Shown: piece by piece, positions 24,675-44,421 of the stretch
Numbering within the stretch: the stretch's first letter is position 1
Layout of the letters: each line of letters opens with the position of its first letter
Position numbers and translations under genes: made by a program
Origin: a virus
Lineage: Duplodnaviria; Caudoviricetes
Length of the DNA: 64,000 nt
IMG/VR virus record: IMGVR_UViG_3300033475_000009
Coordinates: 26,550 to 90,549 of that record
Direction: 5' to 3' (one strand)
The notes under the pieces: model-generated
The model's database searches: none
The model's input: the letters and a program-made list of their open reading frames with translations, nothing else
Told to the model about the DNA's origin: nothing

Positions 24675-26597
24675 ATGGTTACAGGACAAAAAGGAGGCTT
24701 ACTTAAAACTGAGTCAAGTAATGATGTATTAAATACTGGATTAGCAGGTTTTGTAGCTAGTCCTAATACTCCTATAACTAGCTCTGATACTATTTTAACT
24801 GCTTTTGATAAAACTCAAGCTCAGTTAAACTCTATAGGTGTAGGCCCATTTGTAAAAACTGATGGAACCACTCCTCTAACAGGTAATTGGGCTGCTGGTA
24901 ATTTTTATATATCCGCTCAAACTATAGGTATTAATACAGATGGTACTATTCCTATTGGTAGTTTACAAGTAGCAGGTAATCTTACTTCTACCATTAGAGG
25001 TATAGTTAATGATCAGTATTCTACTGATACTTTATCAGCTAAAATATACAATAGAAAAGCTAGAGGTACATTTGCTTCTCCTTCTACTATAATAACTGGA
25101 GATGTAATAAGTAATTGGACTTCTTCAGCATATGATGGTACTTCATTTGTAGATACTGCCGATACAAGAATATTAAGTGCTGGCACTATAAGTACTGGAA
25201 TAATACCTTCTCAGATGATGTTTAGGACGACTAATAGCTTGGGTACATTAACCCAAGCATTAACTATAGATGAAAATCAAAATATATCTGTAGGAAATAT
25301 CAATCCAGTTACTGGAATGGGAAGAGTTATACATTTGTATAATACTTCTAACGTTGCAACATCAGCAGATAATGCATCTTTTTTAGCACAGTCAGTTAAT
25401 AGAAATTCTTTATTTATAGCAAGAACTTCAGCCACTGGTACTTCATCTTTTCAACATCAATCTAATGATGGGTTAACAACTTATGGAAGTATGTTATGGT
25501 TTGCTTTAGGTGGATCCCATGTTTGGCAAATTAATTCAGATAATACTCAAAAATTAGCTATAGATACTACTGGATTTTTTTCATTAGGAACTGTAGCCAC
25601 TCCAACAGCATTACTAGATGTTAATGGTGTATCTACAGCATTTTCTAAAACTGCATGGACTACTAATGGAACTATTTTAAGAATCCGACCTTTTACTATT
25701 ACAGACACAAATTCTTCTGGTACAGTTCCAGCACAATATGTAAATGTTTTTGGCGCACCAACAATTGCTGCTTCATCAACTACTGCTTATACGTTAAGTG
25801 CTAATACATTTATTGCTGGACCTACTGCTGGAACAAATGTAACTCAGACTAATACAGCAGCTTTAGTATTAGGAGGAAATTTGTATTTTAATGCTAGTGC
25901 GACTGTTGTTGTGGGTACTTTTGATGCACAAACATTAAGTTTAAGAACAAATAATACTACTAGACAGTCCATAACTTCAGCGGGAGCATTTACATTTTCA
26001 TCTTCTGCATTTTCAGGTACACAAGCTTTCATGACCTTTACACCTGGTACATCATCATCAGGTACATCATCGGGATTAATTTGGACAGGCGCACCTCATA
26101 CTGGTCAAACTGCAAGTACTGAGATAATTGATATTAACTATGCTCTTAACAGAACTATTACATGGTCTACAGGAGCGTTGACTACTCAAAGATTCTTTTT
26201 AGTTCAAGCACCTACTATAGCATTTGCAGGAGCTAGTACAGTAACACAAGCAGCTACATTTGTTATTAGTGCAGCACCTATTGCTGGGGCTAATGCTACT
26301 ATAACAGAAAGTAATGCTTTTTGGGTACAAAGTGGGCAAAGTAGATTTGACGGAGCTATCAAAATAATTGATAATAATATTATTTTAAGCACAGTAACAG
26401 GTACTATACTTGGTACATCCACTACTCAGAAATTATCTTTCTGGAATAAAACACCAGTAGTTCAACCTACAACATCTATAACAGCGTCTACATTTGCAGC
26501 TAACACTTCTGGAATATTGAATGATACAGCTACTTGGGATAGTTATACAATAGGAAAAGTAGTAGCAGCTTTAAGACAAGTAGGAATTCTAGCATAA
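24675..26597 (+). CDS. Tail fibre / receptor-binding protein
   Basis: 640 aa, T/S/G/A-rich beta-repeat sequence. FVKTDGTTPLTGNW and VVGTFDAQTLSLRTNNTTR fibre-type motifs. Confidence 0.7.
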   Translation: MVTGQKGGLLKTESSNDVLNTGLAGFVASPNTPITSSDTILTAFDKTQAQLNSIGVGPFVKTDGTTPLTGNWAAGNFYISAQTIGINTDGTIPIGSLQVAGNLTSTIRGIVNDQYSTDTLSAKIYNRKARGTFASPSTIITGDVISNWTSSAYDGTSFVDTADTRILSAGTISTGIIPSQMMFRTTNSLGTLTQALTIDENQNISVGNINPVTGMGRVIHLYNTSNVATSADNASFLAQSVNRNSLFIARTSATGTSSFQHQSNDGLTTYGSMLWFALGGSHVWQINSDNTQKLAIDTTGFFSLGTVATPTALLDVNGVSTAFSKTAWTTNGTILRIRPFTITDTNSSGTVPAQYVNVFGAPTIAASSTTAYTLSANTFIAGPTAGTNVTQTNTAALVLGGNLYFNASATVVVGTFDAQTLSLRTNNTTRQSITSAGAFTFSSSAFSGTQAFMTFTPGTSSSGTSSGLIWTGAPHTGQTASTEIIDINYALNRTITWSTGALTTQRFFLVQAPTIAFAGASTVTQAATFVISAAPIAGANATITESNAFWVQSGQSRFDGAIKIIDNNIILSTVTGTILGTSTTQKLSFWNKTPVVQPTTSITASTFAANTSGILNDTATWDSYTIGKVVAALRQVGILA

Positions 26598-33405: not shown

Positions 33406-34150
33406 TATTAATCATTAAACTATTTAAAAATCCTTCTTTTACATCTACTAACCAATTATTATAATCTCTAATAGTATTAAACTTAGGTATATTAAGAGTT
33501 TTAGATATTTCAGCTTCTATAGAATCTACGAATATAGTAGGAATACTATAGTCTTTAATTAGCTTAGTTATCTTATTATAAGTTATTAACTCGTTACCTA
33601 AACATCTATTCTTACCATCTTTTATAGCTAATATATAGAAACAATCAAATTCTGGTTCTACTTTAGCTAATATACAAAGTTTAATATAATAAATATATTC
33701 TGGTTTAATACAACATAAATATATAAATCCATTATCATTACCTAAAGTATAAAAAGATAATATACCAAAAGAAGATCTATGTAATGAATTACTTAAACAA
33801 GTAATCATTTGTGATAAATATTTAAGACTAGTATAAGTATTAGCTATAAATATATTATTAGTTCTATAATTAGATAAAAAAGTATTTAAGTTAGCTTTAT
33901 TAAATTTATCTATTTCTACAAAACTACTTAAATTATAATATTTTTTATTTATAGTAATATTATTGATTACACTAGATTCAAAATAAAAAGTATCTTCTAT
34001 TAAGTTAGTAAAGTCTAATAATTTAAATACAGGATAATGTTTATTAAGATCCAAATAATAATTTAAATCTGGAAAATCTTGATTTATTTTAGAACTTATA
34101 AAACTTTTATCTATGGATATTAGCATATTGTTGTCTTGTATAGTTTTCAA
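33368..34150 (-). CDS. Hypothetical protein directly downstream of the E1 gene
   Basis: 260-aa ORF overlapping the E1 3' end; the start position is uncertain. Confidence 0.55.
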   Translation of the reverse strand: MKTIQDNNMLISIDKSFISSKINQDFPDLNYYLDLNKHYPVFKLLDFTNLIEDTFYFESSVINNITINKKYYNLSSFVEIDKFNKANLNTFLSNYRTNNIFIANTYTSLKYLSQMITCLSNSLHRSSFGILSFYTLGNDNGFIYLCCIKPEYIYYIKLCILAKVEPEFDCFYILAIKDGKNRCLGNELITYNKITKLIKDYSIPTIFVDSIEAEISKTLNIPKFNTIRDYNNWLVDVKEGFLNSLMINNGKDNNTDALSR

Positions 34151-35093
34151 ATAACATCATAGGACTATTAAATGTAGTAGCAAAAGGTATTTCTCTAATA
34201 TCTATACCTTTCATTTTATTAGCTACAAAGTTTAAAAATCCTATAGATATAATACTAGCTATCATAGTACCTGTTTGACAAGTAGCTTTAAAACTACAAG
34301 GAGCATCAGGTACTTCTATATCTTCAAATAAAGTAGTCTTATATAGTTCTGCATCAGCTTTGTTTTTAATAAAGAATACTTGCATAGATTCAATATTCAT
34401 TCTACTATCAATGAAAATATTTATTTCATTAGGATTTGCTTCTCTATATTCAGGTGTTTTAGATAACTGATAAGAATACCATTTATCAAATAATATTTTT
34501 CTAGCATTCATATTATCAAAGCAACTAAATACAATATTATCTATAGGAGAATCTTCATCAAATCTACCTAAAGCAGTATAAGTACTATTACCATATTCTA
34601 AAGCAATTTCTTTAGCTTTCTGAGCTTTATTCTTACCTATATCTTTTATACCATACATTTGACTCAAATGTATAAACATATATACTTTCATATATAACTG
34701 GACTATACCTTAATCCTATAAGGATTCCCATTGGTAGTCTCTGAGAGCTTATCCTTTTTATAAGAATCTATCTCTGCTGATTGTCCAATCTTTTAAATTT
34801 TTAGATATTTTATACATTACTATATAAAATTACTATTAAAAGCTCTAAGGAGTTTCCAGCATATTCTGGGTTTGCTAATTAAATCACTTTAATTAGGGGC
34901 AGTCAACTTTACCCACATTAACAGTATCAATAGTATCAAAGTCATATAAATAAGTATCATATCCTTGTCTACTTAGTATATAAGATAGATGGCTACCTAT
35001 TCCTCCTAGTCCTGCTATAATAACTGATAAATTAGGATTAAAAAAAGGAGCGTCTTTAAAACGCTCCTGTGTTTGTTTAGCTTTTATTTCCAT
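34107..35093 (-). CDS. ThiF/MoeB/E1-like adenylyltransferase, spliced (exon1 35093-34911, exon2 34664-34107; 246 aa)
   Basis: Exon1 has AGLGGIGS and DFDTIDTVNVG. Exon2 has SQMYGIKDIGKNK, CFDNMNARK and DAPCS. The exons join in frame (183+558 nt) after removal of the group I intron. Confidence 0.9.
34665..34910 (-). mobile_element. Group I self-splicing intron (246 nt, no ORF) in the E1 gene
   Basis: 5' exon ends ..GGGU and pairs with IGS GCCC (U.G). P10 UUGACU pairs with 3' exon AGUCAA. P AUAUGCUGGAAA, Q AAUCAGCAG, R UCAGAGACUAC, S AAGGUAUAGUCC. P9 has a GAAA tetraloop; terminal G at 34665. Confidence 0.93.
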
Positions 35094-36205
35094 TCTTCTG
35101 TAATTTCTTGTTTAATTACATCTATTGTATCTTTAATAATGTCTTTAATAGCTACTTCACTTGGATGTTCTCCCATCATTATTTGAATATGATTTCTAAT
35201 TTCAAATAATTCAGTAGGGGTAGTATTTTCTCCAAATATTTTATAAAAAACATCTTCAGCAATAGCTTCTATATATTCTTTATATTGCTCTATTACTGAC
35301 ATACCTATTTCTTCATTCCAACTATCTTTAGCTTGAGAAAGTGTTAATAACTCACACTCTACACAATCTTCATCCTGCATAATTAAACTAATTAGAAAGT
35401 CAGCAGATTTGCCTTTAAGATCTCTCTTTTTACCATTATAAGTATCATATTTATTTAAAGATTTATTAAAGGATTGTTGATTTTGTGAAACTTGCCATTT
35501 ATAATTAGGTTGATAAGAAGTATTATAATTCAAATTTAAACTTAGTTGTTTAGCTTCTTCTTTAGCTATCTTAGCTTGAGTAAGTTTATTAAATTCTTCA
35601 TCTACGTCATTCTGTATATTTATAATACAATCATAGGTATAGATCACTTCTACTTTCTCTACTACAGCTACTTTCTCTACATACCCTTTTTTGAATTTAT
35701 AGCTATATTTAACGTTACCTTCTTTGAAACCATGTAAAGATACTTTAGCTATACAATCTCCTTGTATATTCACTATAACTGATAAAAAATAAGGATAATC
35801 CTGAGCTTTCTCTAATAGAGTATCCCAATCTGTGCCAGAAAAGAATACCTTCATATTATTGTGAGTATGTAGTAAACCTTGTTTTAATTCCATTAACTGA
35901 GGTCTTTTATCAAACATTTCTACTACTTGCTCTCCTGTAGGATCTATTTCTGTAAAAGCTGCTGTTCCTAAATCCATTAATACAAATTCTTCTACATTAA
36001 GAATTAAATTATCAGGATCTTCTATACTGCCTTCAGGTCTAAAGTATATATAACCTGAATACTCTTCTTTATACTTAGCATGTAAGTAATGAATATCAGA
36101 CCATATTTTCTGAGGTATATTAACTTTAATCTTTTCACTACATTCAATTTTGTTCTTTGTCGATGTAGTAGTCATAGACTCTGAAAAGGATGTATTTTTT
36201 TGCAT
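35084..36205 (-). CDS. JAB/MPN+ (JAMM) metalloprotease, deubiquitinase-like
   Basis: EYSG...HTHNNMKVFFSGTD = exact HxH-x7-S-x2-D motif, followed by a low-complexity linker and an acidic C-terminal domain. Confidence 0.9.
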   Translation of the reverse strand: MQKNTSFSESMTTTSTKNKIECSEKIKVNIPQKIWSDIHYLHAKYKEEYSGYIYFRPEGSIEDPDNLILNVEEFVLMDLGTAAFTEIDPTGEQVVEMFDKRPQLMELKQGLLHTHNNMKVFFSGTDWDTLLEKAQDYPYFLSVIVNIQGDCIAKVSLHGFKEGNVKYSYKFKKGYVEKVAVVEKVEVIYTYDCIINIQNDVDEEFNKLTQAKIAKEEAKQLSLNLNYNTSYQPNYKWQVSQNQQSFNKSLNKYDTYNGKKRDLKGKSADFLISLIMQDEDCVECELLTLSQAKDSWNEEIGMSVIEQYKEYIEAIAEDVFYKIFGENTTPTELFEIRNHIQIMMGEHPSEVAIKDIIKDTIDVIKQEITEEWK

Positions 36206-37619
36206 ATTCTGTTATATTAGGATGTACTACTTTTTTAAAATTAGTATTTTCACTACTAACTATATTTTCTATTTCTAAAAAAACTTTCTTATTACCTAAA
36301 GTACATAAAGGTTTTATATATTCAGATTCTAAAGGCTCTATATTATTATTAAGTTTAAAATATTGATTAAGCTCTGTATCTTTATAACAAAACTGTTTAT
36401 ATATAGTAGGGAAATTTAAAGCTAACTCAGTAATAGAATCTTCTAATAAATTAAAATCTAAACTAAAGTTATTATTAATCTTATCAAAAGTTAAGTTAAT
36501 ATTAACTTCATTATTAGCTATAGCTTCTGAAATTATTTTCTTTCCATTATTTTCTATACTATAATTATCTATAGATCTTTTTACTAATAATTGATCTATT
36601 CTTCTATGAGGACCACCTTCTATTGATTCCCAGCCTACATATATAGATAAAGTAGCAAAGAATATTTCATAATCTATTATATTATAATCTCTATATAACT
36701 TTCCTTTTAACTCTACTAATGGGCCTGATCCTAAACAGAAAGTATTTATAGAAAAATCATTATTATTAGGTAAATGAGAATGATGGTATTTATTATGTTT
36801 TTCTATATTAGTAAGCTTACTTCTAAAACCAAATGGACCTCTTAGTAATTTACCTTGTGTATTAATAGTAATACCTACATATAAATCTTTTATTGTATGG
36901 TTAATTTTATCGGCATTAGTAATATTTATTTCTGGAAATTTAATAATTAAAACTAGTGGAGCATTAAAGAAATCTAATTCACTATAATAAGTTCTTCTAG
37001 TTTGGCAATTTAAATCAAAAGTTTCACTAGTATTCTGTAACCACCAATTACCTGGATAGAATTTATCTATAGATTCTTTAAATTCTTTATAAAAAGATAA
37101 AGATTCAATATCTATCTTATTATATTTTCTTCTTTGCCATACACCATTAATTATAGCAAATCCATTAGAGAGAGCTACTTCTGTATTTATAAAATAATAT
37201 ACAACTTCTCCCTCTTCTACTATTTTTATTAGATTTTTTGTATCATCTGCTACACTTACTGTATCTTCAGAATCTATATACGCCTCTACTATTCTATGAA
37301 TATCTTCATATCTATTATTATAACTAACATAATAATATTCATATCTAGAAACCCAATAATTTCTATGGCTTACAAATTCATATTCTGAACTAGCTTCTAC
37401 AAAACTACCATCTCTTAATTGTATAAGATCTTTAGCTACACTTTCTTCTACTTCAATAGTATTATTTTCTATATATTCTATTTCTATTTCTTCTGTATCT
37501 TCATTAATATTCTCTTGATCTGAAATAGTACCATTAATCATTAAAGACATTAACTCAGATTCATTCTGTAAAGCTTGTCTTTCCTGTTCTGTTAATTGAG
37601 TTCTTCTTACTATATCCAT
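36144..37619 (-). CDS. Prokaryotic E2 (UBC)-like conjugating enzyme with acidic N-terminal extension
   Basis: IIKFPEINITN..HTIKDLYV..YHHSHLP..FCLGSG (candidate catalytic Cys at 36735-36737)..YVGWESIEGGP. Confidence 0.7.
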   Translation of the reverse strand: MDIVRRTQLTEQERQALQNESELMSLMINGTISDQENINEDTEEIEIEYIENNTIEVEESVAKDLIQLRDGSFVEASSEYEFVSHRNYWVSRYEYYYVSYNNRYEDIHRIVEAYIDSEDTVSVADDTKNLIKIVEEGEVVYYFINTEVALSNGFAIINGVWQRRKYNKIDIESLSFYKEFKESIDKFYPGNWWLQNTSETFDLNCQTRRTYYSELDFFNAPLVLIIKFPEINITNADKINHTIKDLYVGITINTQGKLLRGPFGFRSKLTNIEKHNKYHHSHLPNNNDFSINTFCLGSGPLVELKGKLYRDYNIIDYEIFFATLSIYVGWESIEGGPHRRIDQLLVKRSIDNYSIENNGKKIISEAIANNEVNINLTFDKINNNFSLDFNLLEDSITELALNFPTIYKQFCYKDTELNQYFKLNNNIEPLESEYIKPLCTLGNKKVFLEIENIVSSENTNFKKVVHPNITEYAKKYILFRVYDYYIDKEQN

Positions 37620-37629
37620 AAGATAAAAT

Positions 37630-37657
37630 AGGTAGTATTAGTTATCTAATACTACCT
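37630..37657 (-). terminator. Intrinsic terminator-like hairpin between the Ubl and E2 genes
   Basis: 12-bp perfect stem AGGTAGTATTAG-ataa-CTAATACTACCT followed by ATTTT on the - strand. Confidence 0.7.
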
Positions 37658-37669
37658 TTAAAGTTTAAT

Positions 37670-38386
37670 TTATAAACCTAATTTCTTAAAATCCTTAGCC
37701 AGATCTTCTTCTGATAGAAGTTTAGATTCACTAGGTAAAATGGTTTTACCTTCTTCTATATTAGTTATAACTTTTGTTTTAGCTAATTTAGCTTCTTCTT
37801 TAGTCATTTTCTGCTTAGGAAATACATTATTAAGCACTTCAGAGAATCCTTCAAGCAAAGTACCTAGTGTACTTTCAAGAGCTTCTATTCTTTCTAGTAG
37901 ATCAGGAGTATTTTCTTTAACAGATTTTTCTACTTTCTCCTTAATTTCTTTTCTCTTTTCTTTAGCTACTTTAGAAGTACCTTTAACTTCTGATAAGCCT
38001 GTATACTTAGTAAGAATAGCAATTAGATCTTTAGTTTTAGGATTACTACCAATAGCAGGAATATCAGGATTAGTTTCTCTAAGTTTAGCTACTTCTTTTC
38101 TAAGTTCATTATACTTTAAGTTTTCAAAGTCTTTAGTAGCTCCAGATTTCATTTTATCTTGTACTAGATAAATTACTTGATTACCTTCTGGTACTAAAGC
38201 ATCGGGTAACTGAAGAATTCCTTTAGTTGATCTAAGAACAGCTTTTCTATTATGAAGACTCATATCTGCTTCTTCAATTAGAGGTATGATATCTGACCAT
38301 TTAGTAGCTCCTGTTTCAACCGTAATAGTTTCTCCAGTTACTCCATCATAGATTTGTACTGTTCTTATAGTTTGTAATTGTGACAT
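37670..38386 (-). CDS. Ubiquitin-like (beta-grasp) domain ending in KMKSG82, fused to a SAP/HeH-like motif and a coiled-coil tail
   Basis: RTVQIYD..TITVETGATKWSDII..KAVLR..DALVPEGNQVIYLVQDKMKSG fits a beta-grasp pattern. It is followed by LKYNELRKEVAKL..GSNPKTKDLIAIL. Context is E2/JAB/E1. Confidence 0.65.
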   Translation of the reverse strand: MSQLQTIRTVQIYDGVTGETITVETGATKWSDIIPLIEEADMSLHNRKAVLRSTKGILQLPDALVPEGNQVIYLVQDKMKSGATKDFENLKYNELRKEVAKLRETNPDIPAIGSNPKTKDLIAILTKYTGLSEVKGTSKVAKEKRKEIKEKVEKSVKENTPDLLERIEALESTLGTLLEGFSEVLNNVFPKQKMTKEEAKLAKTKVITNIEEGKTILPSESKLLSEEDLAKDFKKLGL

Positions 38387-42471: not shown

Positions 42472-44421
42472 TTATTCTTCTATTTTAGATAGTCTTTCTA
42501 TAGCTTTATAATGAATATCTTTCATTTCTTTAGCTCTAGGTAATTCATGATAAGCACCTACTTCACCTATAAATCCCATACCTACTCTAACATTATCAGC
42601 ACCTTCTCTATTCTTTAGGACTCCGACACATCTGAACCTATCTCTTAAAACTGCTATATTATAATCCATAAATTTATCCATATCATTATTTGCATTCATA
42701 TAGGATAAAGGATTAAATATACACATTACTGTATTAGCATCTTGTCCAGGTTGATTAGAGTCTTTTATATCTGATAATGTATGAAAGATTTCACCGTATT
42801 TCACTTTATTAATATCATCTATACTCCGATTAGCATGAGATACTAAGACAGGTGAAAAGTTAAATCTATTTCTAAATATTCTAAAATATTCTGAACACTT
42901 ATCTATTGTTGATTTTGCATTATAATTATCTGCCACTTTTTCTAGAGATAAATTACCAGCAGTATCTCCTATTATTATAGTATATTTTTCAGGATCTTTA
43001 GGTACATAAGTTTTTCTACCTCTACTATCCTCTACTATACTACCATTAGCTAATGCATACTCATTAACTTTTTTCCATATACCTGTGGGATTCTGGGGAT
43101 CATCATATATATGTACTACATCTGACATTTCTTCAAAATAATCAGCAGTAGATACTACTCTCTTATATATATCATCACTTATTCTATTCTTACCTTTAGA
43201 TAATATATAATTAGTATCTACCAATAGTTTATAATCTTTATATATCTTCCAGCAAGCCCATTTAGCTATTTTACTTTGTCTGGATATCTCTAAACTATAA
43301 TATAATATTTCTAACTTATTTAGCTTATTTATCTTTTTAAGATAATCATAAGGATTTAATACATAAGAAGCATCTACAAAAGCAGACTTACCTGTCAATT
43401 TTGTTATCTATAAGACTCTTTATTCTTATATTCTACATATTACTATGTAGTTCAGACTATATCATCATCCTTTATAGAATGTTGGGCGCTCGTGGATATA
43501 TTATATTCTATATCAGGGTTTGTGTTTTAAATCTCACTTTATCTGATTTTTGTAGTAGTTGATTAATCTACTCTTTAACTAATAGTTTCAATATCTAGTC
43601 GTTGCACTTTTACTAGTCTTTTAAACTAGTACTTAGCTCAGGATTGTCCGTTGCAGGAGTTTCCCTGAATTCACCCAATTTAAAGAGGGCTATAGGAAAA
43701 TTTAAATTTTCTAGGTTTATGTAAACCATTTATTATTCTTCTAATTGTTGAGTAGCTCACTTTTGTAAATCTTTGAGCTTCACTAACACTCTCGAAACTG
43801 AATTTTTCATTAGTCTTAACATTTATACAAAATATAGGCTTCTTAGCAGTTCCTAGTTTTAAATTTCCACTAATATATTTTTGTTTTAATACATTTGAAA
43901 TTTTTATTTTTGTTTCTTCTGCTATTTTTACTCTAATAACATTTCTAACTACATTATAAATAGAATTAGAAACATTAATATAATATTGTTCTCTTTTGAT
44001 TAAATTTTCAATAGTAACTTCTTCCAATATATAACATCTAAAATTTTCAATTCCATTTTTATTTACAGAATTCTGCAAAATAGAATTTTTATGTTTATTT
44101 CTAATTAAGAATGTTCTATGTTTATGAAGTCTTTGATAAATATTTACTGAACTACCTATATATTTTTTATTATTTATTATATTTTCTATACAATAAATTC
44201 CGGACTTTTTGTAAAATTCATAATTAATTTTCATGGTAATAAAACTAAAGAAATTTAGTGACTTTTCCAAGTCAACCCTCTCTTCCAAAAACTACGTCAT
44301 ATCTACCTCTCTGTATTCCACAGATATAGGAATCTAATCTATCATATCCTGTAGGTAAACCTAAGTTTTTACCTTCTTTACCAGCATCTACAGATTCTAT
44401 TAATTCCTTATATAGACTCAT
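42472..44421 (-). CDS. dnaB: SF4 (DnaB-like) replicative helicase, spliced (exon1 44421-44275, exon2 43395-42472; 356 aa)
   Basis: Exon1 MSLYKELIESVDAGKEGKNLGLPTGYDRLD..VVFGREG joined to exon2 TGKSAF restores Walker A GREGTGKS. Later motifs are LVSHANR, IKDS..GQDAN and KNREG. Confidence 0.92.
43396..44274 (-). mobile_element. Group I intron (879 nt, IA2-like) with homing endonuclease in loop L1
   Basis: Exon end AGAGGGU pairs with IGS GCCCUCU located after the ORF. P3 UUGGGUG/CGCCCAA, P4 UUCAGG/CCUGAG, P7 GACUA/UAGUC, extra stems between P7 and P3', P9 CUACAU/AUGUAG; terminal G at 43396. Confidence 0.92.
43680..44234 (-). CDS. Intron-encoded GIY-YIG homing endonuclease
   Basis: KSGIYCIENIINNKKYIGSSVNIYQRLHKH..REQYYI..YN and a C-terminal NUMOD1-like FESVSEAQRF. 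Likely start is the ATG at 44234, not the TTG at 44288. Confidence 0.9.
   Translation of the reverse strand: MKINYEFYKKSGIYCIENIINNKKYIGSSVNIYQRLHKHRTFLIRNKHKNSILQNSVNKNGIENFRCYILEEVTIENLIKREQYYINVSNSIYNVVRNVIRVKIAEETKIKISNVLKQKYISGNLKLGTAKKPIFCINVKTNEKFSFESVSEAQRFTKVSYSTIRRIINGLHKPRKFKFSYSPL

Follow-up and report, generated by a model that had tools for sequence, protein, structure and literature searches.

A probable minimal group I intron in the E1/ThiF-like gene of a distant crAss-like phage

Is a phage E1/ThiF-like gene that public gene calls present as two products a broken gene, or is it a single gene interrupted by an RNA that would remove itself by splicing? We addressed this question in a 64,000-nt stretch of viral DNA (hereafter the window; positions 26,550 to 90,549 of IMG/VR record IMGVR_UViG_3300033475_000009). 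The source record, a viral contig of 90.5 kb, bears direct terminal repeats; the one DNA sequencing run listed with its full length is labelled a soil metagenome and may represent the source sample. A 3513-aa ORF of the contig has its matches among the virion RNA polymerases of crAss-like phages, and the named relatives of the E1 gene belong to Crassvirales and FpV4-like phages; on these two grounds we regard the phage as a distant crAss-like phage. In the public gene calls for an identical contig, the E1 gene is given as products of 66 and 190 aa. The ORF list of the window, in which a preliminary description of the locus had noticed two broken ORFs, does hold ORFs of 66 aa (35093-34893) and 194 aa (34691-34107) on the minus strand, on either side of a stretch free of long ORFs. 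We find that this stretch is very probably a functional-looking group I self-splicing intron at window positions 34665-34910 (minus strand), whose endonuclease gene was lost or never present. An ORF-less minimal intron had been proposed at this place, and its coordinates, its junction and the length of its product all proved exact against the sequence, the ORF list and the alignment of homologues.

The interrupted E1 gene and its junction

The 246-nt intron (34910-34665) has no ORF and a G+C content of 28%. Its first base is an A that directly follows the GGU of the exon, and its final base is a G at 34665 (omega-G). An in-frame UAA stop codon (34895-34893) lies in the 5' strand of helix P2, five codons inside the intron, and an early in-frame stop is usual in phage introns. 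The coordinates of the exons and of the intron parts are collected in Table 1.

Table 1. Features of the interrupted E1/ThiF-like gene and of its probable intron, in window coordinates.
Feature	Position	Strand	Description	Evidence or remark
E1/ThiF-like exon 1	34911..35093	minus	61 codons, MEIK...DTVNVG, ends GTG GGT	ORF list, Pfam ThiF, homologue alignment
Probable group I intron	34665..34910	minus	246 nt	RF00028 match, covariation, helix coordinates
P1 and internal guide sequence	34897..34914	minus	exon GGGU (34914-34911) with GCCC (34900-34897)	U·G at 5' splice site
P10 5' strand UUGACU	34901..34906	minus	directly 5' of P1 guide	pairs with exon-2 AGUCAA (34664-34659)
P2 hairpin	34875..34896	minus	9 bp, GUGA tetraloop	8/9 pairs change on both sides
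P3 5' strand and P4-P5-P5a-P5b domain	34775..34870	minus		14-intron alignment
P6 and P6a hairpin	34745..34774	minus		both-side changes: P6 2/3 pairs, P6a 6/6 pairs
P7 GACUA/UAGUC, P3 3' strand UGGG, P8 hairpin, J8/7 AAGGUA	34701..34739	minus		catalytic core, P3/P7 pseudoknot
P9 hairpin and tail	34665..34696	minus	7 bp, GAAA tetraloop; 14-nt tail ending in terminal G	
E1/ThiF-like exon 2	34107..34664	minus	185 codons and stop, begins AGT CAA ATG (SQMYGIKDIGKNKA...)	ORF list, homologues

When the two exons are joined (35093-34911 and 34664-34107), they encode a ThiF/E1-like protein of 246 aa with no frameshift or stop. This protein aligns without a gap at the junction DTVNVG/SQMYGIKDIGKNKA (a slash marks the splice junction here and below) with its counterparts in bajarodcaudo virus 1, uncultured phage cr85_1, Flavobacterium phage FpV4 and Bacteroides phage PhiCrAssBcn13, and about 30 uninterrupted metagenomic homologues of 234-252 aa are continuous through HN[VI]G/SQ[ML]Y. 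The set of E1 homologues comprises 35 members, most of which are 234-252 aa long and uninterrupted. The preliminary description had stated that removal of the intron would join DTVNVG to SQMYG at a GGU/AGU junction and restore one 246-aa E1, and colinearity with the uninterrupted homologues confirms this. It had also pointed to intron-less alleles in related phages as an informative comparison, and such alleles were found, namely homologue P0002 and the approximately 30 uninterrupted proteins.

Upon comparison with the Pfam ThiF profile (PF00899, cut-off 28.1 bits), exon 1 covers profile positions 20-60 with 21.5 bits, and positions 66-196 are covered with 13.8 bits by the part of the second ORF that lies downstream of 34664, both scores being below the cut-off; since successive segments of the profile are matched, the two ORFs are consecutive parts of one E1/ThiF-like protein. 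The closest homologue, the intron-less P0002 (73% identical), matches the same profile with 44.3 bits, in a single stretch that spans the insertion site. Exon 1 encodes the nucleotide-binding loop GLGGIG (Rossmann GxGxxG), and the closest relatives of known structure are MccB and UBA5, with similarity limited to the N-terminal part.

The gene stands in a compact context, with the start of exon 1 overlapping the upstream JAB gene by 10 nt and the neighbouring genes overlapping the exons. Window positions 34107-38386 (minus strand) hold an overlapping gene set composed of a Ubl-like gene, an E2-like gene (HSHL…FC.GSG), a JAB peptidase gene (H.H-x7-S-xx-D) and, last, E1; this Ubl/E2-like/JAB/E1 order recurs in L022 (2867-6835), a very divergent contig. 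The E1 protein of PhiCrAssBcn13 (L004:2425-3528) is annotated with 367 aa, that is, with about 120 extra N-terminal residues relative to the other homologues, which may reflect translation from an earlier start codon or fusion to the terminal part of the gene before it. From the presence of an intron it had been argued that this cassette is conserved and functionally important; the conservation itself is shown by the homologues, but not by the intron. Homing endonucleases normally select conserved motifs as insertion sites.

Structure and covariation of the ribozyme

The preliminary description had reported complete P1, P10 and P3-P9 helices and a terminal omega-G, and every one of the listed helices was found, together with a P2 that it had not listed. 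P1 comprises 4 bp and is closed in the window copy by a loop (L1) of 10 nt; its U·G column is kept in 9/9 informative rows of an alignment of 14 related introns, which were found by pattern searches and protein-guided look-ups. The position of the P10 strand directly 5' of the P1 guide is the canonical intron arrangement, and all six pairs between UUGACU and AGUCAA are Watson-Crick in the window intron. P10 is weaker in some relatives, with 44.6% of cells paired across the 14-intron alignment; in L022, UUGUCU stands against GGACAA, and the pairing of other copies is poorer. Within the large central domain, P4 and P5 are invariant and 100% paired, and changes on both sides are seen in 3/4 pairs of P3 and 6/7 pairs of P5a. 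P7 is likewise 100% paired and invariant in 14/14 rows, P8 covaries, and P3, P6 and P8 are 94-100% paired in this alignment with changes on both sides. The core segment that contains P7 and P8 fits the Rfam consensus at ...AGACUA... and ...GAUAUAGUC... An assignment to subgroup IA2 was rejected, as P7.1 and P7.2 are missing and CCAA alone lies between P7 (34739-34735) and the P3 3' strand (34730-34727).

Group I identity, which the preliminary description had proposed to check with Infernal, finds support in a full-length alignment to Rfam model RF00028. In an 801-nt slice, the model aligns over 34920-34679 at model positions 1-253 with 43.0 bits (E 1.6e-9), a score that falls under the gathering score of 50 bits, although such a threshold belongs to the database and is no biological criterion. 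Scans of the whole window (with gathering and E-value thresholds) and of the whole genome did not report the intron at 34665-34910. This miss is due to speed filters acting on DNA of 28-30% G+C, and slices of about 1 kb recover the match. For two close relatives, in contigs L006 and L031, Rfam reported nothing at E <= 0.1, which indicates that Rfam is only marginally sensitive to this intron lineage. Because the window match is sub-threshold and these relatives are unmatched, the family assignment rests mainly on the hand-built structure and its covariation.

Across the 14 introns, 84.2% of cells are paired, compared with 71.5% for shuffled columns and 34-43% after displacement of the partners by 1-3 columns. 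The window sequence itself served to derive the structure, so that the paired-cell figure is biased upward relative to the displaced controls; the counts of double changes suffer less from this bias. Both sides change in 42 pairs, and none of 500 shuffles reaches the observed values. The covarying helices are P2, P3, P5a, P6, P6a and P8, and the covariation thus supports the proposed structure.

Same-site introns, the endonuclease gene and distribution

The E1-like gene had been described as an unusual target for a phage intron. This stands for the searchable literature, but not within the phage group itself, in which exactly the same E1 codon boundary has been hit repeatedly, with introns in contigs L005, L006, L021/L022 and L030-L032. 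Nucleotide identity to the window intron is 87% for L006, 78% for L005 and 73% for L022, and 75% for the core of L030. The copies in L030-L032, L005 and L006 share with the window intron the boundary (N-x-G / S/C-Q-M-Y), a homologous core (75-87%) and the JAB-E1 context, with the JAB peptidase gene directly upstream of E1 in L030 as well as in L022. They differ in size: the endonuclease-bearing copies are about 1.2 kb long, compared with 246 nt in the window, and their L1 holds a gene of 963 nt where the window intron has its short loop. The layout of L030 is exon 1 (…AAU UUA GGU), 40 nt, a 320-aa ORF (P0036), the guide with the ribozyme core, and exon 2. P0036 is a double-motif LAGLIDADG protein with C-terminal Cys-rich repeats or a zinc ribbon (PF14528, 37.2 bits, cut-off 22.5), and ORFs of its type sit in the P1 loop, between the 5' splice site and the guide, with their last codons overlapping the guide and P2. 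In L030 (2461-3693), and also in L031, L032, L005 and L006, the stop codon of the endonuclease ORF lies inside P2, so that translation of this ORF would compete with formation of P1 and P2. The contigs L005 and L006 end inside the endonuclease ORF, which hints that the ORF is repeated in those samples.

No LAGLIDADG homologue was found in the window's genome by tblastn of the protein, and none is present in the window intron. The most economical reading is a once-mobile intron from which the endonuclease gene has disappeared; a later invasion of a bare intron by an endonuclease gene is a possible alternative to such a loss. The intron of L021/L022 resembles that of the window in its site (NMG/GQMF), in being ORF-less and in the Ubl/E2-like/JAB/E1 gene order, and differs in its length of 319 nt, to which L1 contributes about 100 nt of additional non-coding sequence, and in its very divergent host E1, which forms the longest branch of the E1 tree.

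In a maximum-likelihood tree of 36 E1 proteins (leaving out P0010, which duplicates L006, P0024, which duplicates L005, and the fragment P0030), the five intron-bearing alleles need 5 changes, of which well-supported branches force at least 4, and each intron-bearing allele adjoins intron-less alleles. Such a scatter speaks for gain and/or loss on repeated occasions. In each pair compared, the ribozyme core shows higher conservation than exon 2 (L006, 87% vs 75%; L022, 74% vs 58%), for which either structural constraint or lateral movement could be the explanation. Judged by its site and core, the window intron is a member of a lineage that occupies this E1 site in several related crAss-like phages, and the pattern points to a spread of the lineage by homing and/or repeated loss; the lineage appears to be mobile and specific to this site of the E1 gene among crAss-like phages.

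More distant members of the family (L010-L027) reside in other genes of low-G+C phages. They show 70-77% nucleotide identity over P3-P8 and share with the window intron the invariant P4, P5 and P7 and the covarying peripheral helices; their host genes differ, for example an NrdD-like C-terminus in L023 and L027, and some carry ORFs in P8 or P9. In L018 (2750-3950), L020 (2018-3174), L026 (220-1941) and L017, two to three tandem group I introns lie within about 1.2 kb of one gene; these viral contigs are 20-136 kb long, and one of the tandem introns belongs to the lineage of the window intron. Searches with exon 2 alone as query against viral contigs gave no relatives, and blastn of the intron against named phages returned four weak partial hits only. 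A DNA pattern for the core motif had its sole matches in L008 and L009, both of which were rejected as unrelated introns.

The same genome holds a second group I intron, indicating that this phage tolerates introns. It lies at window 43396-44274 (minus strand; about 879 nt; RF00028, 77.8 bits in a 1.2-kb slice) and splits the gene of a DnaB-like replicative helicase in the Walker A motif, between …VVFGREG (ending at 44275) and TGKSAF… (starting at 43395). A GIY-YIG and NUMOD1 endonuclease ORF occupies 43680-44288, in the 5' part, and the first three bases of the intron form a UGA stop. This intron, too, was unreported in the whole-window Rfam scans of the 64 kb, on account of the speed filters, and further introns of unrelated subfamilies could be undetected in the genome. 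Two other candidates were discarded: a weak nhmmer match at genome 22061-22111 gave no Rfam match, and a motif match near genome position 6994 falls within a tRNA array and is not an intron.

Proposed splicing, competing readings and comparison with known introns

We propose that the pre-mRNA of the JAB-E1 operon would fold into a P1-P10 ribozyme, in which the first step would be the attack of an external guanosine directly 3' of the GGU, whose U is held in the U·G pair of P1. In the second step, the liberated 3'-OH would attack behind the terminal G while P10 keeps the 3' exon in position, and the ligated message (GUG GGU/AGU CAA AUG) would encode one 246-aa ThiF/E1-like enzyme. On unspliced RNA, ribosomes would stop at the UAA and release a 66-aa fragment. 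Catalysis, splicing in vivo and homing are all steps that we infer from sequence. A search of sequencing runs listed no RNA run that contains the sequence, and the contigs of the two DNA runs did not extend over the intron.

A variant of this reading, rather than an alternative to it, holds that the intron is real but needs an RNA chaperone or a maturase-like factor of the host or the phage, for which relatives may use their LAGLIDADG protein. We consider such a dependence rather unlikely. With a P1 of only 4 bp and a very A+U-rich sequence (28% G+C), efficient folding may need a chaperone, and the minimum-free-energy fold of the single sequence consists of local hairpins only (z = -2.35), an outcome that is expected of a pseudoknotted ribozyme. 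Relatives carry the LAGLIDADG ORF, and some LAGLIDADG proteins are maturases in organelles. However, the window's genome has both exons intact without a homologue of this ORF, and the intron has GNRA tetraloops in L2 and L9 and the full core helices, as in self-sufficient phage introns.

If the intron were instead a dead relic in an E1 pseudogene, only fragments of 66 and about 190 aa, or nothing at all, would be made, and the missing endonuclease gene and the Rfam score under the cut-off would be in keeping with such decay. We judge this very unlikely, as no core helix is disrupted and the U·G pair, the terminal G and a perfect P10 are all preserved. Both exons are open, their joined product shares 73% identity with the intron-less P0002 and is free of frameshifts and stops, and the overlaps between the exons and the adjacent genes resemble those of an intact operon.

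The preliminary description had suggested that splicing could gate E1 production. We consider it very unlikely that, as a regulatory reading would have it, an endonuclease-free intron has been kept because its splicing controls when, or how much, E1 is made and thereby how active the ubiquitin-like Ubl/E2-like/JAB/E1 cassette is. Splicing would compete with translation under that reading, because the UAA stop lies in P2, five codons into the intron; were splicing to regulate E1 in this way, the intron would be a regulatory element and not only a selfish remnant. That there is no intron, and that E1 is naturally made of two polypeptides with a structured intergenic RNA between their genes, agrees with the two products predicted by gene callers but is extremely improbable, given that the break interrupts a conserved motif without loss or duplication of any residue, that no credible start codon is available to the second piece, whose ATG falls within P9, that the spacer has every group I hallmark as well as covariation, and that about 30 homologues are single-chain.

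A functional-looking intron in an intact gene therefore remains the preferred reading, and it bears on annotation, in that the phage E1 gene would be whole and not broken despite the split public gene calls, and on detection, in that default Rfam scans of long A+U-rich sequence miss such introns. Since such scans overlooked both introns of this window, and endonuclease-based surveys would pass over introns that have no endonuclease gene, intron counts in crAss-like phages are probably too low. The E1 site also offers a series of intron-less alleles, alleles with an intron and endonuclease gene, and a minimal intron, which suits the study of the homing cycle of gain and loss.

Group I introns have already been described in crAss-like phages (Yutin et al. 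2021, Nat Commun, PMC7886860). The window phage resembles those hosts in being crAss-like and in also having an endonuclease-bearing intron, in its DnaB-like helicase gene; ThiF/E1 is absent from the whole text of that paper, whose survey relies on endonuclease domains, so that an ORF-less intron would escape it (PMC7886860). Our literature search for a group I intron combined with a phage ThiF gene found nothing relevant. We regard the window intron as a real addition to a familiar class of mobile ribozymes, and a new mechanism is not indicated.

The classical phage group I introns are those of T4 td, nrdB and nrdD, of the SPO1 DNA polymerase gene and of Twort orf142. Like the window intron, they lie in conserved motifs, carry an early in-frame stop and occur sporadically among related phages, and their cores at J6/7-P7 (CAGAGACU..) and J8/7-P7' (..AUAGUC) are similar to that of the window intron. 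They differ from it in that P7 is separated from P3' by P7.1/P7.2 in the classical IA2 introns (T4 td and Twort type) but not in the window intron, in that their ORFs lie in other loops, and in that their host genes serve nucleotide metabolism or replication and are not E1-like. The E1-like enzyme of a phage ubiquitin-like cassette would thus join the known targets of phage group I introns, among which an E1-like gene is not previously listed.
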